From an uncultured virus (IMG/VR IMGVR_UViG_3300000439_000022) (Duplodnaviria; Heunggongvirae; Uroviricota; Caudoviricetes), in the IMG/VR virus record IMGVR_UViG_3300000439_000022: DNA of 64,000 bases; one strand, given 5' to 3'. Shown here in pieces: positions 1 through 31,742 of this stretch (its first letter is position 1; every line of letters starts with the position of its first letter). The translations under genes and the position numbers were made by a program. A model generated the notes under the pieces. The model saw nothing but the letters and a program-made list of their open reading frames with translations, had not been told where the DNA came from and ran no database searches.

Positions 1-35
1 GAAAGAAAAAAAACAAAAGGTTATAAATTTAGTTA

Positions 36-1064
36 TTAACCTTTTGTTTTCATTTTACCAGACACATATTGCAAAAGTTGTGATTTATCGTTTGCAACGG
101 TATCAGAGTAAACAGCATCCATAGCCAACTTCAATCCAAGACCAACTTTTTCGTTTTTAAAGCCCAGACTTTCCAGATCATTACCATTAATAGCTAATTG
201 TTTATATGATATCGGATATCTACCATCTTCGAAAAATGGTAATACGTTATCCAATTCGTTCAATATGAAATAACTATCAAACATTGTCGGCGCAATCTTA
301 TTTACACCAAAAACCATCCATTTATCCTCAAGGTCAGTTCTCACAGGTTTATCCATAACCAATTGTAAGGCTTTCATTTCAGCATGAGTCTTCAAATCAC
401 CTTTCATAACTTTCATGAAATAAGCTGCTGGGTCTTTTGTAATTGGTTGTAATAACCAATAAATAAATTCACTTAGTTTGTTGACATGATTAAATGGTTT
501 GAATGAGCCAAGAAACCTGCTATCAAAAATACCTTCATATAAACCAGACTTAACCAACAAAGTGACACCAACATAGGGTGAACCTTTATCTACAATCTTT
601 TGAAACTCTTCTATAACCCTTTCAAACGCTATTGTTTTGATTGAATCGGCGTTTTTTTGAATCATATCAAAAGTATGAGGCTCAATTGTGAATCCAAACC
701 TCGAAGCAAATTGAACCGATCTTAGCATTCTCAAAGGGTCATCAGCAAAAGCTTCAGGATTTGTTAAACGTATAGTTTTTGTTTTAATATCTTCAATACC
801 CTTGTATGGATCAATTAGATTACCTTCAGCATCCTTAGCTATTGAGTTGATAGTAAAATCACGCCTTTCAAGATCCTTTTCAATTGGTAGAGTATGGTCG
901 GAAGTCACATCAAATCCTTTATGACCAGCTAAATTTTTTATCTTAGTCGGCTTAATTGTTTTATTTAAAAAACTAATTATATTTTCTGGTTTATTGTAAA
1001 CAACTCCGTTAATGACATTGAAACCATTTAATTCTAATAGTTGTAATATTTTTTTCTTATCCAT
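36..1064 (-). CDS. cca: C-terminal part of a split class II CCA-adding enzyme (tRNA nucleotidyltransferase)
   Basis: GHKGF..DLERRDFTINS, DPYKGIEDI, DDPLRMLR and ERVIEEF motifs; lacks the GGAVRD/DxD motif, which lies in 2030..2800. Confidence 0.88.
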   Translation of the reverse strand: MDKKKILQLLELNGFNVINGVVYNKPENIISFLNKTIKPTKIKNLAGHKGFDVTSDHTLPIEKDLERRDFTINSIAKDAEGNLIDPYKGIEDIKTKTIRLTNPEAFADDPLRMLRSVQFASRFGFTIEPHTFDMIQKNADSIKTIAFERVIEEFQKIVDKGSPYVGVTLLVKSGLYEGIFDSRFLGSFKPFNHVNKLSEFIYWLLQPITKDPAAYFMKVMKGDLKTHAEMKALQLVMDKPVRTDLEDKWMVFGVNKIAPTMFDSYFILNELDNVLPFFEDGRYPISYKQLAINGNDLESLGFKNEKVGLGLKLAMDAVYSDTVANDKSQLLQYVSGKMKTKG

Positions 1065-2052
1065 ATATTTTTTTCAATTCGTTAATCTTTTCGTTTAAAT
1101 CATCTGATTCCCAAATAACAATCACTCGCCAACCATTTTGAATATAATCAGATATTCGTTTTTCATCCTTATCCCAAATTTGTTTAGCTGTCATTTTAAT
1201 AAAAGGGTGATAATAGTCACCATTATAAAATTTTGGATTACAATGCCAAAAATCACCATTTAGCTCAATAATAATTTTTTTCTCTAAATCAACCTCATCA
1301 CTTGTGTAATTGTTAACGACAGTTTGTTCCGATTCTGTTATTATATTGTTTTCGATTAACATTTGTTTTAACTTATCATGCCAATTTGAATGACCTGCCG
1401 TTTTATTACCATACGCAACAAACCCACCATATTTTTTTATTATTGTTTCAGCTCGTTTTAAATAAGATTGATTCTTTTCACAAGTAGCTAATCGTTTTTT
1501 AATGATTGCCCTTTTTTCTTCTTGTGTTTTTTCATCGTATATTTGTTTTCTTTTTTCAATAATTTGTGGATTATGTGAGGGGTTATTATACTTTAACATT
1601 TCAGATAATTTTTCTAACCTTGAAACATTAGTTGAAGCGACTTTAGCCGCTTTTTTTGCTAATGTTTGATTTTTAAAACCACCCATTCTTTCAATAAATT
1701 TTTCAGAGTAACGTGACCCTGTATTATTGAGTAAGGTTTGCTTACCCCTGTCAGTTACTTTCTTATTAAAATCATCTGGGTATATATTACTTAATGATTT
1801 TTTTAGCATTGGTAGCGACCCAGTACCAATATTATGATATTTTTTTTGTATGGATTTCAAACCAATACCGTTTCGAATCATATCTTTTATATCATCCAAT
1901 ATTCCAGGATTGTTATAATCAAAATACATCAGATATATATCCGCATTTTCGGATAATTTTAATTCGTGTATGTTATGGTAATGCCTACCAACACCTTTAG
2001 CTGTAGTTTCAAAATCACAAATGTGACATTTAACCTTTAAGTTCTCTTTCAT
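1057..2052 (-). CDS. Putative homing endonuclease with C2H2 Zn finger and C-terminal Vsr/DUF559-like PD-(D/E)xK domain, inserted within cca
   Basis: CHIC..H...H at the N-terminus; DE...IIIELNGDFWHCNP...WDKD..R...GWRVIVIWESD at the C-terminus; overlaps both cca halves. Confidence 0.8.
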   Translation of the reverse strand: MKENLKVKCHICDFETTAKGVGRHYHNIHELKLSENADIYLMYFDYNNPGILDDIKDMIRNGIGLKSIQKKYHNIGTGSLPMLKKSLSNIYPDDFNKKVTDRGKQTLLNNTGSRYSEKFIERMGGFKNQTLAKKAAKVASTNVSRLEKLSEMLKYNNPSHNPQIIEKRKQIYDEKTQEEKRAIIKKRLATCEKNQSYLKRAETIIKKYGGFVAYGNKTAGHSNWHDKLKQMLIENNIITESEQTVVNNYTSDEVDLEKKIIIELNGDFWHCNPKFYNGDYYHPFIKMTAKQIWDKDEKRISDYIQNGWRVIVIWESDDLNEKINELKKIYG

Positions 2053-2800
2053 TCATTGAATCGTTATATTCTATAAATATATCGTTTTGACCTAAAGTTA
2101 CCACGATCTGTTTTTTAGCCTTTTCAGTACGTGGTAAAGCAATATCAATTTCTTCACCACCTGGGGGTGTAAATTTGATAATACCAAATGATGCACCAAC
2201 AAGATCCACTTTACCGTATTTACTCAATATTGATTGTAGTTTATCTGAAGGTACACCAGTAATTAAAATATCAAGGTCTTTAGATGTTTTATTCAAGAAG
2301 GTATCTCGTACAGCACCGCCAACTTGATAGATTTTACCACCAGCTTTTGTTACATCCGATTTAAAGGGTAAATCGTTGATATCCACAATTTCTTTTAAAT
2401 TTTTTTTCATAGGTTGATCAGGTTGTCCCACTTCTTTAATTTGGCCTGTTAGTATAAATTTTTCTTCAATTGGTTGCCAATCAGTTATGTTATTTGACAT
2501 GAATGGTTTACCACCATCTTTTCTATTAACAGCTAATGTTACATGTGGTTGAGTATTTTTGGATTCAAACCCAGAAACACCAATTTCCATAACCATATCG
2601 GTCATACCTAAAGATTCAGCGGTAATAGATTGTTCTGTACCAAGCAAATCAAGTTTTTCCTTGGGTAAAGAACCCATAGTTATTGTCATATGGTGAGCAA
2701 TCCATTCCCAACCATCAGGCATCATTTGCTTATACTTTTCAGCCAATAGTTGTCTGGATTTATTATCCAAAATAATCCCTGTATATGATATATTTTTCAT
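2030..2800 (-). CDS. cca: 2H phosphodiesterase (tRNA-ligase CPDase-like) fused to the N-terminal part of the CCA-adding enzyme
   Basis: HHMT and PHVT 2H motifs, then VGGAVRD...KDLDIL and IDIALPRTE; homology ends at RTEK. Confidence 0.85.
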   Translation of the reverse strand: MKNISYTGIILDNKSRQLLAEKYKQMMPDGWEWIAHHMTITMGSLPKEKLDLLGTEQSITAESLGMTDMVMEIGVSGFESKNTQPHVTLAVNRKDGGKPFMSNNITDWQPIEEKFILTGQIKEVGQPDQPMKKNLKEIVDINDLPFKSDVTKAGGKIYQVGGAVRDTFLNKTSKDLDILITGVPSDKLQSILSKYGKVDLVGASFGIIKFTPPGGEEIDIALPRTEKAKKQIVVTLGQNDIFIEYNDSMNERELKG

Positions 2801-2881
2801 AAATTATAAATATGGGCAAAAATACACAATACTCTTCATTTTTACAATCATTTTTATATATTTATTTTAAATTAAAGTATT

Positions 2882-3172
2882 ATGGAAGACATATCACTAT
2901 TCAATAAGTGGGCTTTGAAATATAATTTGAAATGCGAAACGAATAAACAAACATTTCCGTTTAATACGTTTTACCCAGAATTTATAATAAACGATAAGAT
3001 ATATATCGATATTTATGAAGATTGGGAAATTTCTGAAGATTATTTCAACATTTGTGAAGCATTTAAAAATAGACATGGTATAATAATCATGATACCAATA
3101 GATGGTCTATCAGAATTGTTTAATTATGTAACACCAGAAGATATTGAAAATAAATTTGATATTAAATTTTAA
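2882..3172 (+). CDS. hypothetical protein
   Basis: ORF divergent from cca, ATATTTAT motif upstream. Confidence 0.55.
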   Translation: MEDISLFNKWALKYNLKCETNKQTFPFNTFYPEFIINDKIYIDIYEDWEISEDYFNICEAFKNRHGIIIMIPIDGLSELFNYVTPEDIENKFDIKF

Positions 3173-3585
3173 TGATTTACCTTAATACAACAAATAAGAC
3201 TTTCATGCGTAAATTTTTGCGTAGAAATCCTGACAGAAATAAATTCAATAACATATTTTCTGGTAACTATTATATTCTTAACATATATGAATTTCATATA
3301 TTAGTTGAATACACACAAAACAAATATGGGGAATTTTTGGGTTTTGAAACTCAAAAACTTAAATCATTAATCAAATTCATAGATAAACTATATTTTGTTT
3401 GTGGTATTGATTTTATCAATAATAGCTGGTCATTGGATTATATATTTTTTGATGCACCACTATCAAAAACATTTTTGATGAAGAAAACAGTTATGCATGA
3501 ACTGGATTATTTCTTCACAAATATAAAGATAGATAATATGAGATCAAATTCCTATAATATAACAATATTTAACCCTGAATGTTGA
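3172..3585 (+). CDS. hypothetical protein
   Basis: ORF coupled by TAATG overlap. Confidence 0.55.
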   Translation: MIYLNTTNKTFMRKFLRRNPDRNKFNNIFSGNYYILNIYEFHILVEYTQNKYGEFLGFETQKLKSLIKFIDKLYFVCGIDFINNSWSLDYIFFDAPLSKTFLMKKTVMHELDYFFTNIKIDNMRSNSYNITIFNPEC

Positions 3586-3821
3586 TTTAATCAAAATTTT
3601 TTACTATATTTGTTTTTTAAATCCAAAACCATGGAAAAAGAAACTATTAAAATTAAGTTAAAACAACTTAATATCACTGACGATACTATCAATTCAATTC
3701 ATGAATTTATTGTATCTTTGCAAATTAAAGATGAAGAAATTGAAAAGTTGCTTGCCCTAATTGAAAAAGTTGGGTTACAACACTATATTCGTGAATTTAT
3801 GAAAAAAAATATTAATCTATA

Positions 3822-4451
3822 ATGAGTTTTGACAATAATGAAAAAAAGCTGAGTATCTTCAGGAAGATATTTTTGTGGTGGAAGTTCGAAGGTAAATATT
3901 ACCATAAGGATTTATATCAAGGCATTAGAAATATTATACGTTGGTTCCCTGTAATTTGGAAAGATAGGGACTGGGATGACCATTATATATGGCAAGTAAT
4001 GATGACAAAATTAACATTCCAAGCTAAGTACATTCGTGAAAAGGGTTTACATGTTGATAATGTTCGTGATGCTGAAAAAATGGAGTTGTGTGTTAGATTG
4101 ATGAAGCTCATATCTGATGAATTTTATACTGGCGAATATATGGATTATCATAAATCAAAATTTCATTTTGATCCAGTGACCAAGGAAGAACTTGATGAAA
4201 TGTCTGAAGACAAAAGGAAATTGTATGAGGATTGTTCAACATTAAGGATTGAAGAGATATGGGAAAAGTATGATGATTACTTTAAAAAGTATCCACATGC
4301 CTATAAAGAAGTTACAAAGACAGATAAATATATCTTTGATAATAAATCCAAACAAACTATTGCTATGAATATGGGATATTATTTACACAATAAAGCAAGG
4401 CGTATTTTATTTACGCTATTAGAACGTAATATAGAAAGTTGGTGGGATTAG
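3822..4451 (+). CDS. hypothetical phage protein
   Basis: WKDRDWD and C-terminal WWD motifs; tight gene packing. Confidence 0.65.
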   Translation: MSFDNNEKKLSIFRKIFLWWKFEGKYYHKDLYQGIRNIIRWFPVIWKDRDWDDHYIWQVMMTKLTFQAKYIREKGLHVDNVRDAEKMELCVRLMKLISDEFYTGEYMDYHKSKFHFDPVTKEELDEMSEDKRKLYEDCSTLRIEEIWEKYDDYFKKYPHAYKEVTKTDKYIFDNKSKQTIAMNMGYYLHNKARRILFTLLERNIESWWD

Positions 4452-4911
4452 CATATGTCTTCAAAGATAAATAAGTACAAAGTTGGTGATAAAATAGAAT
4501 TCTATTTTCTGGATGTTCTAAAATGGGGTATTGTTAAAGAAATTAACACTAAGGATAATACTGTCAGCATAATTTCAACCAATAATATTATATATGTGGC
4601 TCATGCCACAGAAAAAGATTCAAAATTTTGTTTTTTGAAAAATAATTAATACTTTTGTAGTATTATGGAAAATGATTTATTTTTGATGTGTGAATGTCAC
4701 ACAGAATCTATGCAGGTTACATTTGAAGAAGAACATAACGAATATTGGTTTGCATATTGGGGTTATGGTTTTAATAATAAAAAATCTTCATTATGGCATC
4801 GAATCAAGAACGCTTATTTGTTATTAAAGACAGGTACGTTACATAAAGATTTCATCATACTTGACAAAGATAAAGCACAACAATTAGCTGACTATATTAA
4901 TAAAAATAACA

Positions 4912-5997
4912 ATGACAATACAAGAACTCAGGGATAATAATTTGATATTATTTGAATGTCTAAGCGGTAGCTATGCATATGGTACAAATAAACCATCAAG
5001 CGATATGGACTATCGTGGTGTTTTTATATTGCCTAAAGATAACATATACGGTTTTAATTATATTGACCAAGTCAACGATGAAACCAATGATATCACCTTT
5101 TATGAAATTGGTAAGTTTCTTGAATTACTTGAAACAAATAACCCCAATATCATCGAGATATTGAATATGCCTCCAGAGAACATTGTGTATAAACATGAAT
5201 TGTTTGACATTATTTTGAATAATAAATCTAAATTCATAACAAAAAAATGTAAAAACACATTTGGTGGTTATGCTTCAACACAAATAAAAAAAGCCAGGGG
5301 ATTGAATAAGAAAATTGTTAATCCTGTTGATAAGGAGCGTAAGTCCATATTAGATTTTTGCTATATTATTGATGGTTACAAGTCAAGACCTCTTAAAGAA
5401 TTTTTGGATAATAGCGGATACAACCAAGCTAAATGTGGATTGGTTAATGTTCCAAATGCCAGAGATGTTTATGCTTTGTTTTACGATGCTTATTCATCTA
5501 AGGAAGGTTCTGGTTTGGGTTATCGTGGGATTATGAATGAAGATGAAACCTCAAATGAGGTTAGACTTAGTTCAGTACCTCAAGGTGAAAAACCAGTGGC
5601 AACTATCATTTACAATAAAGATGGTTATTCTAAATACTGTAAAGACTATAAAGAATATTGGGATTGGGTAGAAAAACGTAATTCTGATAGATATGAAACA
5701 AATGCTTCACATGGCAAGAACTACGATTCAAAAAATATGATGCATTGTCTTAGACTTCTTAGAATGGCAAAGGAAATCGGATTAACTGGTCAAGTAAATG
5801 TTAAAAGGCATGATGTAGCTGATCTGATGTTAGTCAGAAATGGTGAAAAAGAATATGATGATCTTATTGTCGAAGCACAATCAATCATGGATTCTATGGA
5901 AAAAATATATGCCAATTCTAATTTACCTGAAGAGGTGGATCATAACTTTGTAAATAATATGTTAATCATAATCAGAACTTTGTTTTATGAGCGATAA
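4912..5997 (+). CDS. RlaP-like (Pol-beta superfamily) nucleotidyltransferase
   Basis: GSYAYGT...SDMDYRG, NPNIIE and YDSKNMMHCLRLL motifs. Confidence 0.8.
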   Translation: MTIQELRDNNLILFECLSGSYAYGTNKPSSDMDYRGVFILPKDNIYGFNYIDQVNDETNDITFYEIGKFLELLETNNPNIIEILNMPPENIVYKHELFDIILNNKSKFITKKCKNTFGGYASTQIKKARGLNKKIVNPVDKERKSILDFCYIIDGYKSRPLKEFLDNSGYNQAKCGLVNVPNARDVYALFYDAYSSKEGSGLGYRGIMNEDETSNEVRLSSVPQGEKPVATIIYNKDGYSKYCKDYKEYWDWVEKRNSDRYETNASHGKNYDSKNMMHCLRLLRMAKEIGLTGQVNVKRHDVADLMLVRNGEKEYDDLIVEAQSIMDSMEKIYANSNLPEEVDHNFVNNMLIIIRTLFYER

Positions 5998-6958: not shown

Positions 6959-7421
6959 AATGTATGGTCTTGTACCGTATAATATTAGTCCGATTCAGCA
7001 AGGTATTCAGTTTGGCCATGCTGTCGTTGAATATGGTTTAAAACACAATAATGAAGCCTATAAAGACTGGGCTAAGAACTGGAAAACATTCATCATACTA
7101 AACGGTGGAACCACAAATACTAAGGCTGATTTGGAAACTGGTTTACCTGTGGGATCGTTAAACAATCATTACTTGAACCTGCACAAGCTTGGAGTTAAGA
7201 CTGCCGTGTTTCATGAACCAGATCTTGGAGATCAGCTTACAGCGGTTGTTTTTTTACTTGATGAGCGTATATTTAATAGAGTGAAATATCCTGATTTCAT
7301 TGAGTGGGCTAAAAATCCAGATACAAAAATCGCAAGAACCCAAGAAAACTGGATAAAAATGATTGGAGGCAAAAACAATGTAAAAATAAGAGATTATATT
7401 TCAAAATTCAGATTAGCATGA
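6933..7421 (+). CDS. peptidyl-tRNA hydrolase 2-like protein
   Basis: QQGIQFGHA, IILNGG and FHEPDLGDQLTAV motifs. Confidence 0.6.
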   Translation: MKKEKLELRMYGLVPYNISPIQQGIQFGHAVVEYGLKHNNEAYKDWAKNWKTFIILNGGTTNTKADLETGLPVGSLNNHYLNLHKLGVKTAVFHEPDLGDQLTAVVFLLDERIFNRVKYPDFIEWAKNPDTKIARTQENWIKMIGGKNNVKIRDYISKFRLA

Positions 7422-8086
7422 AAAACGTATTAGCTTATAAGAAGGTCAACCAAGTTATCCTTAGCTGCGAAAATAAAGAGCAACTAAAATCAGCAAGTAA
7501 CATGGTCGTCAGTTTCTCTAAGCTATACGGTGATAGTGAATTAACAAAAGTTCTTTCAATATTATTAGAAAGAAAACTATATTTTATCGAAATGAAAACA
7601 AAACCTGTGGTATATTTTTTGGTGGGCCCTCCAGGTATTGGTAAGTCAACATACGTAAAAAACGTGTTGTTACCAAATGGGGATTACCATGTCGCTTCCA
7701 CAGATGATATATTAACAAAGAAAGGAAAAGAAATAGGTCTTAATTATAATCAAGCATTTGATCATTTTGACTTTAAGGATTTTAAGGATATTGAAAAGAT
7801 TTTCAGATTCGGAATTATGCGAGCCATAAACGAAAGACTTGATATTGTCATTGATAGAACAAACATGACATTAAAAGGTAGAAACAAATTACTTCGTCTT
7901 TTTCCTGATGATTATATCAAGATTGCCGTTGTTTTTGATTTTTCAAACGCTGAAAAATTAAAGGCTCAGCTTGCAAAACGTGAAAAAGAAGAAGGTAAAG
8001 TGATATCCGATTCTGTCATGTACAAAATGATAAAATCATACGTTGAACCAACAAATAAAGAATTTGATCAAATTATAAAATTATAA
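7418..8086 (+). CDS. P-loop kinase (AAA_33/polynucleotide kinase-like)
   Basis: GPPGIGKS Walker A, STDD, DRTN...R. Confidence 0.8.
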   Translation: MKNVLAYKKVNQVILSCENKEQLKSASNMVVSFSKLYGDSELTKVLSILLERKLYFIEMKTKPVVYFLVGPPGIGKSTYVKNVLLPNGDYHVASTDDILTKKGKEIGLNYNQAFDHFDFKDFKDIEKIFRFGIMRAINERLDIVIDRTNMTLKGRNKLLRLFPDDYIKIAVVFDFSNAEKLKAQLAKREKEEGKVISDSVMYKMIKSYVEPTNKEFDQIIKL

Positions 8087-14232: not shown

Positions 14233-15573
14233 ATGTCATACACAGCAATTGTAACAAGATTAAAAGATGTAAGGCCACATTCAAATGCGGATAAAGTGCA
14301 GTTGGCAACTTGCCATGGTAACCAAGTGGTTATTGGATTGGATTCTAAGGAATCTGAATGGGGTGTGTATTTTCCGTGTGACGGACAATTATCTGACGAA
14401 TTCTGTAAAGCCAATAATCTTTATAGGGATAATACTAAGAACAAAAATACTGAAGCTAAGCCAGGTATGTTTGATGATAACCGTAGGGTTAGGGCTCAAA
14501 AGTTTCGTGGTGAAATTTCAGATGGGTTTTGGGTTCCATTACACTATTTTGCATTCATTGAAATAACTGGTCTTGATGTGGAAGGTTACGAATTCGACAC
14601 TTGGAAAGGTGTACCTATCTGTAATAAATATGTTAATCCAGCAACTGTTAAAGCGGCTAAGGAGAATCAACCAAAGAAAGTTCGCAAAGCAAAAACATCT
14701 GAAATGTTCTTTGAACATATCGATACCAAACATATGATTGTTAACATTGATAAAATCGAACCAAACGATTTAATTATCATCACATCTAAGCAACATGGAA
14801 CATCTGGAAGGGTTGGTCACGTGTTGATTGACAGAAAGTTAACAACAATCGAAAAGATTGCAAAGTTTTTTGGTGCCAAAATCAAAGAAAAGGATTGGTC
14901 ATTTCTAAATGGAACAAGAAGGGTTGTTATTGAGGAAAGCTCAGGAACACAATTCCATGATCCAACAATTCGTGATAAAGCATTCAACCTATTTAAAGAC
15001 AACCTGAGAAAAGGTGAAACGGTATATTTTGAAATTGTTGGATATGAGTCACTTGGCAGACCAATTATGGGTATGGTGGATACAACAAAAATTGGTGACA
15101 AAAACTTCACCAAGTTGTATTCAAATGCTGGTGATAATAAACACATGATTTTCAAGTATGGTTGTGCTGACGGTCAATCAGACGTATTTGTTTACCGTAT
15201 GACAATGACAAATGAAGATGGTAAAATGGTTGACTACTCATGGGATGACGTTAAAAGACGTTGTTCTGAAATCGGTGTTAAACACTCACCAGAACTTGAC
15301 CGTTTTACGGTAAATGAATTTAAATTAAGACATAACATCACTGATGACCGTGATTTTAATGACAAATTCATTGAATATGTTAACCAAGTTTCAGATGGTG
15401 CCGACCCAACTGACTCAACACACTGGTCAGAAGGTTCATGTATCAGACTTGAATCAGGCCTTGCTGTTAGGATCTTCAAACATAAGAACTTCAACTTCAA
15501 AGTGTTAGAAGGAATTATTAAGGATTCTGGGTTTATTGACGAAGAGGAAGCACAATCTGAAGTCATAAATTAA
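14233..15573 (+). CDS. RNA ligase (DRB0094/Rnl5-like) with N-terminal OB-like domain
   Basis: HSNADK N-terminus, KQHGTS motif I, FEIVG, EG and FKHK motifs. Confidence 0.75.
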   Translation: MSYTAIVTRLKDVRPHSNADKVQLATCHGNQVVIGLDSKESEWGVYFPCDGQLSDEFCKANNLYRDNTKNKNTEAKPGMFDDNRRVRAQKFRGEISDGFWVPLHYFAFIEITGLDVEGYEFDTWKGVPICNKYVNPATVKAAKENQPKKVRKAKTSEMFFEHIDTKHMIVNIDKIEPNDLIIITSKQHGTSGRVGHVLIDRKLTTIEKIAKFFGAKIKEKDWSFLNGTRRVVIEESSGTQFHDPTIRDKAFNLFKDNLRKGETVYFEIVGYESLGRPIMGMVDTTKIGDKNFTKLYSNAGDNKHMIFKYGCADGQSDVFVYRMTMTNEDGKMVDYSWDDVKRRCSEIGVKHSPELDRFTVNEFKLRHNITDDRDFNDKFIEYVNQVSDGADPTDSTHWSEGSCIRLESGLAVRIFKHKNFNFKVLEGIIKDSGFIDEEEAQSEVIN

Positions 15574-16298: not shown

Positions 16299-17264
16299 AT
16301 GACAGATGTATTAAATCTGGTTAACCCTACAAATAGTATAAAATATGAAATTAGCCGTTTCCCAGACGGTCAGCAGTCATTAAGACTGATAGAAGAAAAT
16401 ATACATACATTCTACGGTATTACAAATCAAACAATACCTATCAAAATTAAATCCAGATTGAATAATTTTCAGGATCTGGAACTTATTATTTGTGCCACAC
16501 AAGCTCTTCGTGGTATAGGTGTAAAATCAATTGAATTATACATTCCATATTGTATGGGTGCCAGAAGTGACAGAAAGTTCATGGAAGGTGGTATTAATTA
16601 CGTTAAACACGTTATTGCTCCTATTATCAATTCTCAAAATTACGAGTCCGTTACTGTGGTTGATCCTCATTCAGATGTGCTTGAGGCATGTATAAATAAC
16701 TTCAAAAAAATTGATAACACTGAGTTGGCACGTTTTGCTTTATCTGATTATCTCAGAACGCAAATCCAGGATGGAAAATTTACCGATGGGGATAAAATAG
16801 CTCTAAATTATGACAATGTTCGTTTTATATCTCCTGATGCTGGTGCTTTGAAAAAAGTATTTCATGTGGCAGAAGCTTTGAAATACAAAAATGAGGTAAT
16901 CATTGCTTCAAAACATCGTAATCTTGATACTGGTAAGATTGATTACACAAATGTTCACATGTCAGTAACAGATGCTGACAAAGATTTCTTTATTTTTGAT
17001 GATATTTGTGATGGTGGTAGAACGTTTATTGAAATTGCAAAAACAATCCAAGAACGTAGAAATTTATCAAGTTCGGTACAACCAAAAGATTACGGCAATA
17101 TTTACTTGGTGGTAACACATGGTATATTTAGTGCTGGTTTATCTGAACTAAGTAAATACTTTACAAAAATCTATTGCACGAATAGTGTTAAAGATAAAGC
17201 TGATATCAATTTTTCAGATATTACCATTAAAGAAGATTTCATTCAACAATTAAATGTTTTTTAA
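16299..17264 (+). CDS. ribose-phosphate pyrophosphokinase-like protein (Prs/Adps candidate)
   Basis: FPDGQ, PY..ARSDR, DPHS, SPDAGA, DDICDGGRTF and VTHG motifs. Confidence 0.9.
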   Translation: MTDVLNLVNPTNSIKYEISRFPDGQQSLRLIEENIHTFYGITNQTIPIKIKSRLNNFQDLELIICATQALRGIGVKSIELYIPYCMGARSDRKFMEGGINYVKHVIAPIINSQNYESVTVVDPHSDVLEACINNFKKIDNTELARFALSDYLRTQIQDGKFTDGDKIALNYDNVRFISPDAGALKKVFHVAEALKYKNEVIIASKHRNLDTGKIDYTNVHMSVTDADKDFFIFDDICDGGRTFIEIAKTIQERRNLSSSVQPKDYGNIYLVVTHGIFSAGLSELSKYFTKIYCTNSVKDKADINFSDITIKEDFIQQLNVF

Positions 17265-18732: not shown

Positions 18733-18852
18733 ATGGAAACATTTAATTATGAGTATGATCCTAATATGGAAAGATACATTTCAAGATTAGTTAAGGAATG
18801 GAAGGAACATAAAAAAATTATTTTATGCGTTGACTTTGACGATCAAGGGTAG
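18733..18852 (+). pseudogene. truncated N-terminal copy of the HAD gene at 19599
   Basis: METFNYEYDPNMERYISRLVKEWKEHKKIILCVDFDDQG* closely matches the start of 19599..20048. Confidence 0.88.
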
Positions 18853-18883
18853 AATTTTGTCCTTTTCCCATATATTTATTGTT

Positions 18884-19594
18884 ATGAAAGCAATATATGG
18901 AATAGTAAACAAAATCAACGGTCATAAATATGTGGGATCGGCTGTAAACTTTTATAAACGTAAAACAATACATTTACGACAATTAAAAAAAGAAATACAC
19001 CATTCCGACTATCTGCAAAGAGCCTGGACTAAATATGGTGAGGATAATTTTGAATTTATCATACTTGAAAAGGTCGATAAAAAAGAGGATTTATTGATTC
19101 GTGAACAATGGTGGATCGATAACTCAAACAGCGAATATAATGTTTGTAAAGTTGCTGGCAGTTCGTTAGGCGTTAAACGTAGTGATGAAACAAAGGAAAA
19201 ATGTCGATTGGCACATCTTGGTGAAAAACACCCAGAATGGCGAAGAAAATTAAAATCCGAAGCACAAGGTGGTGAGAAACATTGGCAGTATGGTAAAAAA
19301 ATGCCAGATGAAGTTAAACAAAAAAAATCGGAAAGTATGAAAAAGTTTTTTAAAACAAACACACATCCAATGAAAGGTAAAAAAAGTACTTTAACTGAAC
19401 AAAGCAAAGAATCAATGATTGATAAATTATCAATACCAATTCAACAATATACTAAAGAAGGTGAATATATACGAGATTGGAAAAGTGCAAAAGAGGCTGG
19501 AACTGAATTAAATATATTTCCCACAAACATTACAACTTGTTTGAAGGGTAAAGTTAAAACCGCTGGAAAATTTATTTGGAAATATAAAAATTAA
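18884..19594 (+). CDS. GIY-YIG homing endonuclease with NUMOD3/NUMOD1 domains
   Basis: AIYGI...YVGS..R...H...E..N; AGSSLG.KRSDETKEK; WKSAKEA; ATG at 18884 is the likely start. Confidence 0.9.
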   Translation: MKAIYGIVNKINGHKYVGSAVNFYKRKTIHLRQLKKEIHHSDYLQRAWTKYGEDNFEFIILEKVDKKEDLLIREQWWIDNSNSEYNVCKVAGSSLGVKRSDETKEKCRLAHLGEKHPEWRRKLKSEAQGGEKHWQYGKKMPDEVKQKKSESMKKFFKTNTHPMKGKKSTLTEQSKESMIDKLSIPIQQYTKEGEYIRDWKSAKEAGTELNIFPTNITTCLKGKVKTAGKFIWKYKN

Positions 19595-20048: not shown

Positions 20049-20119
20049 AAAAAAATCAATAAAAAGTTTGTAATTTTAAAATAGATTTGTATCTTTACAT
20101 TCTAAAACAAAAAATAAAT

Positions 20120-21673
20120 ATGTTTAAACCTTGTAGTTTATATTATGTAGATGGCTATAAAACAGCGCACAAAGCAATGTTAGCCCCAGGTACAACAAGA
20201 TTGTACGGCACATGGATTCCACGTAGCGTTAAATATGCTCCAGGTGGTATCAAAAAAATTGTATCATTTGGTCAACAATTACTTGTTCGTTGGCTACATG
20301 ACGAGTTCACAGAACATTTCTTTAGCCAACCAAAAGATATCGCTATTAAATTTGGTAAAGACATGTCAATGTATCTTGGAATGGATTATGATGCTTCACA
20401 CTTCGAAGCTCTTCATGATGTTGGTTATTTACCAATTCGAATCAAATCATTACCAGAAGGTATTGAAACATTACCTAATATACCACACATGACATTCATC
20501 AATACAATTGATGGTTTTGCATGGTTAACTTTATATTTGGAAACAATCATTTCATCATTGGCTTGGAAACCATCAACATCAGCAACTATTGCCTTACAAT
20601 ATCGCAGGAATTTAGTTAATTGGGTTATGAAAACAGATCCAGCTAACGCATGGTTAATTCCTTTCCTTGCTCATGATTTCTCTGCTCGTGGTTTATCTCC
20701 TTGGGATATGTTATCAAGTGGTTTAGGACATGCTACTTCATTTAGAGGTTCTGATACAATTATTTGCATCCCAGGCGCTCGTTATTTTTATGATGAACCT
20801 GAAAATGAAGTTTTTATCAATTCAGTAAACGCAAGCGAACATTCAGTTAGTTGTACTAAGATTTTTACAGTTGGTGAACAACAAATGATTGCCGATTGGT
20901 TGCAGATATTCCCTAAAGGTATTCTTTCCATTGTGTCAGATACATTTGATTTGTGGGAGTTGATTACCGAATACTTACCAGCAAACAAAGAAGCTATTAT
21001 GGCTCGTGATGGTAAGTTGGTTATTCGTCCTGACTCAGGTGATCCAGTAGATATTATCTGTGGTTCATTTTTACAAAGTGACCGAGATTTATCGGAAAAC
21101 AAAAATGAAATTTGGACAAGTGAAGAAAAAGGTGTAATCGAATTACTTTGGGAAATCTTCGGTGGTACAGTTAACGAACAAGGTTACAAAGTTCTTGACC
21201 CACACATTGGTGCCATTTACGGTGATTCAATCACATTGGATCGTCAGATTAAAATCTATGAAAGGTTAGCCGCTAAAGGTTTTGCTTCTACTAATATTGT
21301 ACTTGGTGTTGGTTCATTCACATACCAATATAATACTCGTGATACTTTAGGTTTTGCCGCTAAAGGCGCTTGGTTTGAAGTATTGCAAGATGCAACTTCA
21401 CATCCTGACGAAAGCGTATTCCAAATTCGTCAATCATATGACATCTACAAAGAACCAGTAACTGATAGGGATGCTTCTGGTAAGAGCACCAAAAAATCAC
21501 TTAAAGGTAGGGTTTGTGTTACTAAAGATTATGATGGTGAATATATTGTAAATACACAATGTACTCCAGAAATGGAAGCCGCTGGAATTCTACAAACCAT
21601 TTACGAAGATGGTAAATTCTATAACCAAACGACTTTAACCGAGATTCGTAAAAAACTTGAAGAAATATGTTAA
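20120..21673 (+). CDS. nicotinamide phosphoribosyltransferase-like protein (Nampt/Namat candidate)
   Basis: DGYK, HDFSARG, ASEHS, VSDTFD, IRPDSGDP and YGDSI motifs. Confidence 0.92.
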   Translation: MFKPCSLYYVDGYKTAHKAMLAPGTTRLYGTWIPRSVKYAPGGIKKIVSFGQQLLVRWLHDEFTEHFFSQPKDIAIKFGKDMSMYLGMDYDASHFEALHDVGYLPIRIKSLPEGIETLPNIPHMTFINTIDGFAWLTLYLETIISSLAWKPSTSATIALQYRRNLVNWVMKTDPANAWLIPFLAHDFSARGLSPWDMLSSGLGHATSFRGSDTIICIPGARYFYDEPENEVFINSVNASEHSVSCTKIFTVGEQQMIADWLQIFPKGILSIVSDTFDLWELITEYLPANKEAIMARDGKLVIRPDSGDPVDIICGSFLQSDRDLSENKNEIWTSEEKGVIELLWEIFGGTVNEQGYKVLDPHIGAIYGDSITLDRQIKIYERLAAKGFASTNIVLGVGSFTYQYNTRDTLGFAAKGAWFEVLQDATSHPDESVFQIRQSYDIYKEPVTDRDASGKSTKKSLKGRVCVTKDYDGEYIVNTQCTPEMEAAGILQTIYEDGKFYNQTTLTEIRKKLEEIC

Positions 21674-30719: not shown

Positions 30720-31742
30720 ATGGCATACGATAGCAAAGCTGATACACTCGAACATATTCGCAAAGTATCACAAAATTTAAACAATTTTTCAAAAGAATTA
30801 TTAGTAAGGGCTAATATTCATGATGAATCTAAGTTACATTCACCAGAAAAGGAATTATTCGATGAGTTAACTCCAAGACTGTCAAATATGACATATGGTT
30901 CAGATGAATATAAAGCCAGTCTTAAAGAATTAGAAGTGGCATTAGACCACCACTATGCTAATAACTCTCATCACCCACAATTTGTGGAGTTTAATGAATT
31001 GTGGATGGATATTTCTGGTTATGTTGGTATATATCAAATATCATCACGTGGTAGGGTTAAGCGATTATCAACAATAATCCATAGAGAATCACAAGGTGAT
31101 TTTATTGGTAAGGAAATGATAATGAAAGCACATGTAACACCAAAAGGTTATGCGAGAATTAGATTACAAACTAATAATATTGGTAAAAACTTTTTCATAC
31201 ATTCATTGGTTGCTAATGCTTTTCTACCATCACCACCAAATGATAGATATCAAGTTAATCATAAAAATGGCAGAAAGCTTGAAAATTACATTGAAAACCT
31301 GGAATGGTTAACACCATCAGAAAATTTACAACATGCCTATGATACTGGTTTAGCCACGCCAAATGTAAAATATGTTGTTCAATGTAATGAATTAGATTTT
31401 ATTACATTTGGTACTGAGAAAATGGAGAAGGAATTAATTTCTCGTGGGTATTTAAATGCTTCTTCGGCTGGTATTTGGAGATGTATAACATCTGACGATC
31501 CAACAAACACACATTTAGATCTAACATTTAAATCATGGAATATTGATGAATATCGAGAATTAAATAGCCCAGTAAGTGATATGACATTGCAAGATATTGT
31601 TGAAATGTATTGTGATTGGAAAGCGGCTATTGAAAGAACAAAAGATGGTGATTTTAATAAAAGTTTGGAAATTAACGAAAAGCGTTTCAGTATAAGTCCA
31701 CAATTAATTCAAATATTCAGAAACACATATGAAAGAGGTTAA
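30720..31742 (+). CDS. DUF5662-like HD-type protein with an in-frame NUMOD4-HNH insertion
   Basis: HIRKV/HDESK/HHY..NSHHP, then W.DI.GY.G.YQIS and VNHKNG...N...NLEW, then DIVEMYCDWKAA. Confidence 0.8.
   Translation: MAYDSKADTLEHIRKVSQNLNNFSKELLVRANIHDESKLHSPEKELFDELTPRLSNMTYGSDEYKASLKELEVALDHHYANNSHHPQFVEFNELWMDISGYVGIYQISSRGRVKRLSTIIHRESQGDFIGKEMIMKAHVTPKGYARIRLQTNNIGKNFFIHSLVANAFLPSPPNDRYQVNHKNGRKLENYIENLEWLTPSENLQHAYDTGLATPNVKYVVQCNELDFITFGTEKMEKELISRGYLNASSAGIWRCITSDDPTNTHLDLTFKSWNIDEYRELNSPVSDMTLQDIVEMYCDWKAAIERTKDGDFNKSLEINEKRFSISPQLIQIFRNTYERG

Follow-up and report, generated by a model that had tools for sequence, protein, structure and literature searches.

The locus and the place of the split

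The 64,000-nucleotide (nt) stretch of DNA from an uncultured Caudoviricetes virus that we analyzed (IMG/VR record IMGVR_UViG_3300000439_000022; hereafter the window) contains, near its start, a locus that is best read as encoding a class II CCA-adding enzyme in two chains, with a homing endonuclease gene between the genes for these chains. Three open reading frames (ORFs) are present on the minus strand, which encode the N-terminal part of the enzyme (N-half), the endonuclease and the C-terminal part of the enzyme (C-half), respectively. All three are intact in the ORF list, and the endonuclease gene overlaps its upstream neighbour by 23 nt (2052-2030+1) and its downstream neighbour by 8 nt (1064-1057+1), the same values as given in a first-pass annotation of this DNA. 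The features of the locus are as follows (lengths in amino acids, aa).

2030..2800, minus strand: N-half gene (256 aa), with a 2H phosphoesterase-like domain, part 1 of the CCA head domain and a cassette tail
2411..2800, minus strand: 2H (cyclic phosphodiesterase-like) domain, aa 1-130 of the N-half, with two H-x-T motifs (HMTIT, HVTLA)
2120..2332, minus strand: CCA head domain part 1, from motif A (GGAVRD, DLD) to RTE and K227
2033..2119, minus strand: cassette C-terminal tail of 29 aa (aa 228-256 of the N-half), a predicted β-hairpin
1057..2052, minus strand: free-standing Vsr-like (EDxHD-type) homing endonuclease gene (331 aa), with an N-terminal Cys/His motif and a C-terminal nuclease
36..1064, minus strand: C-half gene (342 aa), 46 residues followed by GHKGF, RRDFTIN and DDPLR
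927..1064, minus strand: cassette N-terminal extension of the C-half (46 aa), which gives the ATG within the last endonuclease codons
36..926, minus strand: remaining CCA enzyme, with most of the flexible loop (AGHKGFDVTSDHTLPIEK), motif B (RRDFTIN), DDPLR, and the neck, body and tail domains
2050..2079, minus strand: RNA hairpin at the start of the endonuclease gene, in whose 3' arm the AUG of that gene (2052..2050) is paired
9..51, minus strand: terminator-like hairpin over the C-half stop codon, followed by a U-run (-15.1 kcal/mol, z -4.38, 0/200 shuffles as good)

Profile searches divided a single enzyme between the two outer genes. Positions 1-74 of the 126 positions of the Pfam profile PolyA_pol match aa 157-231 of the N-half (E-value 5.2e-9), and positions 82-126 match aa 56-99 of the C-half (E-value 7.1e-11), which also contains PolyA_pol_RNAbd at aa 124-180. 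The tRNA nucleotidyltransferase family PHROG 2244 is divided likewise, with profile positions 3-69 on the N-half and 71-241 on the C-half. One CCA head domain is cut cleanly into two chains. In 53 of 55 related IMG/VR loci, recovered with an alignment of the C-half, the enzyme is uninterrupted and the two blocks lie 13-34 nt apart in one frame; the split is therefore more than a matter of chance. The carboxylates of motif A are present on the N-half (GGAVRD at aa 161-166 and DLD at aa 175-177), and the nucleotide-templating residues of motif D on the C-half (DDPLR at aa 108-112). Up to RTEK, the N-half is 51% identical to an uninterrupted megaphage homologue. The C-half matches the NCBIfam model NF009814 (E-value 1.8e-35), and its AlphaFold2 (AF2) model, with a predicted local distance difference test score (pLDDT) of 82, fits the solved class II CCA-adding enzymes 1miv, 7oqx, 3h37 and 4x4w.

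The flexible loop sits between the basic-x-acidic motif and motif B (DxxRRD) and is needed for A addition; according to Hoffmeier et al. (2010; PMC2910056), enzymes in which a Gly10 spacer replaces the loop perform CC addition only, and the loop has been lost in CC-adding enzymes. Uninterrupted relatives of the window's enzyme (megaphage L001, IMG/VR contig L004 and protein P0005) read PRTEK, then 3 to 5 residues, then G[HY][KQ]GF in this region. In the window, RTE at aa 224-226 of the N-half is the basic-x-acidic motif, and DLERRD is located on the C-half. The break, which lies just after RTE and before motif B, is therefore at the start of the flexible loop, the region in which the first-pass annotation had placed it. 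Compared with the loop of L004, 19 of the 22 positions between RTE and DLERRD are kept, K227 on the N-half and 18 on the C-half (AGHKGFDVTSDHTLPIEK), which means that the loop is cut, not deleted. Because it is almost fully kept, there is no ground for predicting CC-only activity, and the altered CC versus CCA specificity that had been suggested is unsupported when the locus is set against the loop-less CC-adding enzymes.

The 331-aa protein encoded by the middle ORF has no Pfam match. Its C-terminal 70 residues match PHROG 22677 and the “endonuclease” family PHROG 13076, and aa 252-317 match the NCBIfam Vsr model TIGR00632 with an E-value of 2.9e-6 and 27.5 bits, under the cut-off of 97.85. 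Among PDB chains there is a weak match (E-value 0.06) to the Escherichia coli Vsr structures 1odg and 1vsr, and more distant relatives of the protein carry PF18741 and NUMOD3 and are called Vsr endonucleases by some sources. By these scores, the protein appears to be a relative of Vsr and not a Vsr equivalog. Six endonuclease homologues share 58 invariant columns, including E263, D267, W269, H270 and a WES block. E263, D267 and H270, invariant in all six, would correspond to the motif after which Taylor et al. (2011; PMC3239194) named the Vsr-like family EDxHD; according to Dassa et al. (2009; PMC2677866), this family occurs in “fractured genes”.

Split relatives and the peptides at the break

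Among the 55 IMG/VR loci, the split is found on the contig of the window itself and on one other phage contig, of 299 kb (L087/L128), with a diverged copy of the cassette. In L087, the N-half (2762..3118), the endonuclease (3115..4014) and the C-half (4001..5005) are arranged with overlaps of 4 and 14 nt, and its endonuclease matches the profile of the window's endonuclease family over the whole length; P0232 and P0233, two proteins resembling the L087 endonuclease, are 37-38% identical to that of the window. The nearest record, G001, is identical to the window over 1..3200. In the protein collection, the tail ends five N-halves among the 120 matches listed (P0122-P0125 and P0129), and the extension begins five C-halves among the 120 listed for that half (P0002, P0006, P0009, P0035 and P0047). 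The tail is thus present in at least seven N-halves, including those of the window and L087, and the extension in at least six C-halves; the 53 intact IMG/VR loci lack the tail. A metagenome scan with the endonuclease alignment returned 80 loci, all with distant Vsr-like nucleases only and none (0/80) with a CCA half. No additional split locus came from further scans of viral sequences and genomes, for which P0006, P0233, the L087 endonuclease and P0250 (a single-chain relative described below) served as queries. Among 247 + 131 proteins, no second break point marked by the pair of tail and extension was seen.

Since the insertion lies within the catalytic core, it might have killed the gene, in which case the ORFs would be decaying fragments and the phage would depend on the CCA enzyme of its host. 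The rarity of the split (2/55 relatives) fits this explanation, and so does the fact that neither half reaches a curated family score, the best NCBIfam scores being 122.7 bits for the C-half (cut-off 290) and 28.5 bits for the N-half (cut-off 438.8), although falling short of an equivalog cut-off is expected for halves. We nevertheless consider a dead gene improbable. Both ORFs are intact and all catalytic motifs are present, and the same split persists in lineages whose overall identity is 39-58%: GG.VRD, SKDLD and PR are invariant in the seven split N-halves, and EKDLERRDFT.N and DPLRMLR in the six split C-halves. In addition, the start/stop overlaps are kept in two diverged cassettes, those of the window and L087.

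The distribution of identity between relatives is mosaic. P0002 is 100% identical to the window in the extension and then 40-85% (rest 75%). The uninterrupted P0003, when compared with the window's C-half, is 90-100% identical over aa 121-300 and 40-60% over aa 41-120, which adjoin the cassette. This pattern is as expected from gene conversion by the cassette with some 80 flanking codons co-converted, and points to homing of the cassette.

The residues added at the break had been estimated at about 30 and 45, in line with the 29 (tail) and 46 (extension) that we measured, and the first of these stretches had been described as unrelated sequence. That description did not hold up. Tails are 22-29 aa long in the seven loci and extensions 41-46 aa in the six. 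When a profile made from one cassette type was scored on the peptides of the other types and compared with 1000 shuffles, 0, 30, 1 and 2 of the 1000 shuffles were as good for the extension, and 19, 0, 61, 0 and 0 for the tail. Tail and extension are thus conserved peptides carried by the cassette, not random read-through, and they are kept across diverged cassettes.

Both peptides also occur together in one relative without the endonuclease. P0250 is a single chain of 778 aa in which 85 residues are inserted between PRTEK and GYQNF. This insert resembles the tail in its first 26 residues (9/1000 shuffles as good) and the extension in its last 48 (22 bits, 0/1000 shuffles as good). Three states of the site are therefore found among the relatives: empty, occupied by the cassette with its endonuclease, and occupied by tail, linker and extension in one frame. 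The sequence of P0250 indicates that both peptides can adjoin in the loop of an otherwise conserved enzyme, and it is the best available hint that the two may form one module. A profile search of 1.84 billion representatives gave 43,123 matches; among the best 150 of these, P0035 is the only one whose initial residue aligns with profile position 1, and P0250 is the one other that stands out.

In the AF2 models, the extension is predicted to form a helix (3-12), a short hairpin (17-22) and a second helix (26-36), with pLDDT 71-79 from six sequences only; the following loop region of the C-half (43-70) has pLDDT below 50, as expected when the partner chain is missing. For the tail, two strands (231-236 and 239-244) forming a β-hairpin are predicted, weakly, at pLDDT below 40. 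A comparison of the extension and the P0250 insert with the ESM Atlas gave only scores under the tool's own bar.

With regard to the origin of the peptides, the idea that tail and extension are degenerate copies of the adjoining segments of the head domain was rejected for the window: with a profile of 119 head regions, 86/200 and 134/200 shuffles were as good, and the profile was marginal only for the extensions of P0035 (0/200) and P0047 (4/200). Positions 14-34 of the extension profile gave many weak matches (<11 bits) to the C-terminal helix of intact CCA enzymes. As these are all kin proteins, they amount to one weak observation, which may be due to chance or may point to the origin of the extension.

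Proposed expression and assembly of the two chains

Two kinds of splicing could restore a continuous enzyme. The first is that the endonuclease gene resides in a group I (or II) intron and that mRNA splicing restores one frame; the conserved and functionally critical insertion site is typical of introns. However, no Rfam intron family was detected in 1..4000 of the window (E-values up to 1), in 850..2250 (up to 10) or in 2700..4300 of L087 (up to 10). Moreover, there is no non-coding space around the endonuclease gene, the flanks being open, protein-conserved ORFs (29 and 46 codons) that overlap it, and in P0250 both flanks are translated as protein. An intron is therefore very improbable.

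The second possibility is that tail and extension constitute a split intein and that the halves are ligated by protein trans-splicing. The β-hairpin pattern of the tail and part of the extension presumably resembles intein end blocks. The two peptides, with 29 and 46 residues, fall short of a Hint fold, which comprises about 130 residues. Searches with Pfam (E-values up to 0.01) and NCBIfam (E-values up to 10) yielded no Hint or intein family in either half, and the first tail residue is variable among relatives (A, S, I, L, K or R). In addition, the extension is not followed by a conserved Cys, Ser or Thr, and the candidate terminal Asn is Gly or Ser in relatives. Hence, even though most fractured genes are joined by such trans-splicing and the layout equals that of split-intein fractured genes with Vsr-like endonucleases (PMC2677866), we give an intein only the slightest chance. 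With neither intron nor intein detected, and with motifs that are invariant in seven N-halves and six C-halves, the two-chain enzyme proposed in the first-pass annotation is the best-supported reading of these sequences, and CCA addition is its predicted activity.

The first-pass annotation had also placed a promoter for the endonuclease inside the tail. No promoter-like site was found on the gene strand in 2052-2140 (1..3200 contains 20 such sites, with 18.9 expected), and the sole TATAAATA in 2052-2140, at 2072-2079, belongs to the other strand. What is found at the endonuclease start codon is an RNA hairpin that covers it: folding of 2140..2020 gives -22 kcal/mol (z -2.56, 3/200 shuffles as good). 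In L087, a hairpin (3080-3116; CCUCC ... GGAGG) pairs a Shine-Dalgarno-like GGAGG that lies 6 nt ahead of the endonuclease AUG (z -2.0, 7/200). By eye, no such purine-rich site is present for the three ORFs of the window. In the survey of Dassa et al. (PMC2677866), hairpins were described in 15/16 endonuclease leaders, and overlaps with the downstream gene of 6-69 bp in 15 loci. Because the start codon lies in a hairpin, translation of the endonuclease is probably low or coupled, and because a hairpin and U-run span the last stop codon, the three ORFs look like one unit.

On this basis, we consider it quite probable that the locus is a “fractured gene” caused by a homing endonuclease, the products of which form a non-covalent two-chain CCA enzyme, with the cassette peptides probably aiding assembly. 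The events would be as follows. An endonuclease cassette would have been copied into the loop codons of a class II CCA gene of a jumbo phage, most likely by endonuclease-driven gene conversion, with the insertion point directly after the RTE(K) motif. Besides the endonuclease gene, the cassette would have brought in the 29 tail residues and the stop codon with which the upstream piece now ends, and the start codon and 46-residue extension with which the downstream piece begins. One transcript probably carries all three ORFs and would end at the hairpin past the last stop codon. The N-half would be translated normally, whereas translation of the endonuclease is probably kept low by the hairpin, or tied to ribosomes that unwind it while finishing the tail; translation of the C-half would start at the ATG within the last endonuclease codons. 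Neither RNA nor protein would be spliced, and the two chains would re-form the head domain non-covalently. At the break, the tail (β-hairpin) probably packs with the extension (helix-hairpin-helix-strand) into one small folded module, which would help assembly. Homing, co-transcription, translational coupling, association of the halves, the role of the peptides and enzyme activity are all deduced here.

The part assigned to the peptides can be taken further. Tail and extension may be the halves of one portable α/β module, a “clasp” that joins the loop ends across the break, lets the endonuclease invade an essential core at no cost, and is stable as an 85-residue insert after loss of the endonuclease, as in P0250. 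This proposal is tentative, and we would place it a little short of probable. It is also possible, though on the doubtful side, that the halves associate through the natural interface of the head domain only, and that the peptides are tolerated by-products, the tail resulting from read-through into the regulatory hairpin of the endonuclease and the extension from donation of a start codon.

Several points weigh against the proposed assembly of the two chains or against a part of the peptides in it. The best-conserved portion of the tail overlaps the RNA hairpin at the start of the endonuclease gene, and the I-x-I-E/K-Y stretch of the tail falls together with this hairpin, so that a constraint at the RNA level may explain part of the tail's conservation. 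Both peptides are also more variable between cassette types than either the enzyme or the endonuclease, and neither is found beside the other Vsr-like endonucleases (0/80 loci), which means that they do not belong to this family as a whole. The AF2 model of the N-half is poor (pLDDT 60, and below 40 in the tail). Finally, in the split NrdA of phage Aeh1, the tails are dispensable for pairing of the fragments and needed for later dimerisation, according to that study (PMC3045599); because the tails act in dimerisation and not in fragment pairing, the analogy is a loose one.

Tolerated by-products, on the other hand, would not be expected to keep their lengths (22-29 aa in seven loci and 41-46 aa in six), nor their sequence patterns across cassettes whose endonucleases are less than 40% identical. 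The extension lies outside any regulatory region of the endonuclease and yet has a confident predicted fold, and in P0250 the two peptides have stayed in frame despite the loss of the endonuclease.

A natural cut at the loop that is kept across diverged phages, together with the fusion in P0250, provides a ready-made test system for two questions. The first is how much covalent continuity the loop “lever” requires, and the second is whether peptides of mobile elements can serve as assembly tags for split proteins, a role so far shown experimentally only for the Aeh1 ribonucleotide reductase (PMC3045599). If the clasp is real, selfish elements would have in it a way of providing enzymes with new insertion domains.

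Genomic context and comparison with known systems

The window belongs to a 120-kb viral contig. The completeness of the nearest record, G001, is put at 20% for its 67 kb, and this suggests that the phage genome measures some hundreds of kb. On the plus strand, the following genes lie in the neighbourhood.

4912..5997, plus strand: nucleotidyltransferase (PHROG 388)
7418..8086, plus strand: polynucleotide-kinase-like ATPase
14233..15573, plus strand: RNA ligase (PHROG 968, E-value 1e-58)
16299-17264, plus strand: ribose-phosphate pyrophosphokinase, which forms a salvage pair for nicotinamide adenine dinucleotide (NAD) with the gene at 20087-21673
18830..19594, plus strand: GIY-YIG-type homing endonuclease (PHROG 314), between the genes of the NAD-salvage pair, the first of which is phosphoribosyl pyrophosphate (PRPP)-synthetase-like
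20087-21673, plus strand: nicotinamide phosphoribosyltransferase (NAMPT; E-value 1e-151)
30720..31742, plus strand: HNH homing endonuclease (PHROG 59)

From their predicted functions, the neighbouring genes fit a role of the CCA enzyme in repair of tRNA or other RNA ends. The 2H domain of the N-half matches Pfam tRNA_lig_CPD at aa 30-130 (E-value 0.0017, 18.3 bits, under the cut-off of 23). In P0035 and P0303, a 2H domain is located at the C-terminus of the CCA protein and not at the N-terminus, and there are many stand-alone 2H relatives of about 145 aa, which carry PF08302, as well as kinase fusions. These varied placements suggest that the 2H domain is a shuffled module for healing of tRNA 3' ends. 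The CCA domain itself is one module of very long proteins in many relatives (L088-L090, 929-4957; P0249-P0368), which reach 1342 aa in L088 and, among the best 150 of the 43,123 matches, as much as 2398 aa. P0312 (396 aa) is an ORF for the C-terminal part of a CCA enzyme that starts 14 residues before the loop motif and is without an extension like that of the window; either a different type of split or truncation of the gene call could account for it.

We found no literature report of this split for a CCA-adding enzyme, papers naming both a CCA-adding enzyme and a homing endonuclease having been judged by their title and the start of the abstract; the words “nucleotidyltransferase” and “CCA” have no occurrences in Dassa et al. 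(PMC2677866). The arrangement as such is of a kind already known, namely the fractured genes of Dassa et al. (2009) and the genes in pieces with functional tails of Crona et al. (2011).

The closest counterpart is the SbcD-like intein-less fractured locus (PMC2677866), which is likewise a phage-type enzyme gene in two same-strand ORFs with a free-standing Vsr-like endonuclease and no intein. It is the single intein-less example of Dassa et al., and the CCA locus is grouped with it because no Hint or intein match was obtained. Both loci have a hairpin at the endonuclease start, and the 8-bp overlap of the endonuclease 3' end with the downstream ORF compares with overlaps of 6-69 bp in the loci of that study. 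The inserts at the break ends are 25 and 9 residues in the SbcD-like locus and 29 and 46 in the CCA locus. The latter therefore differs in having a far longer downstream extension that is predicted to fold, and also in its host gene and in peptides that are conserved across diverged cassettes and fused in one relative.

In the nrdA-a/mobE/nrdA-b arrangement of Aeh1 (Crona et al. 2011; PMC3045599), insertion of a homing endonuclease has likewise fragmented an enzyme gene. As in the CCA locus, unique C- and N-terminal tails derived from the insertion flank the break and are absent from uninterrupted homologues; there is no splicing of RNA or protein, and translation of the endonuclease is restrained by RNA structure, as proposed here. 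The Aeh1 tails are essential for activity of the split NrdA, acting in dimerisation of the heterodimers. That system involves the HNH endonuclease MobE and a ribonucleotide reductase as host, and the need for the tails was demonstrated experimentally.

Two other systems share single aspects. I-Bth0305I, the EDxHD prototype (Taylor et al. 2011; PMC3239194), is likewise phage-borne, has a Vsr-like C-terminal nuclease and targets a critical loop of its host gene; however, it sits in a group I intron in recA, whereas the endonuclease of the CCA locus is free-standing, without a detected intron, and has weak similarity to Vsr. With the CCA locus, the host-gene targets of EDxHD-type homing endonucleases come to include tRNA-repair enzymes. 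In the bacteria with separate CC- and A-adding enzymes (PMC2910056), CCA synthesis likewise depends on two polypeptides, and the flexible loop is again at issue. Those polypeptides are two complete paralogues with partial activities, the CC-adding one being without the loop, whereas the CCA locus contains fragments of one enzyme in which the loop is kept.

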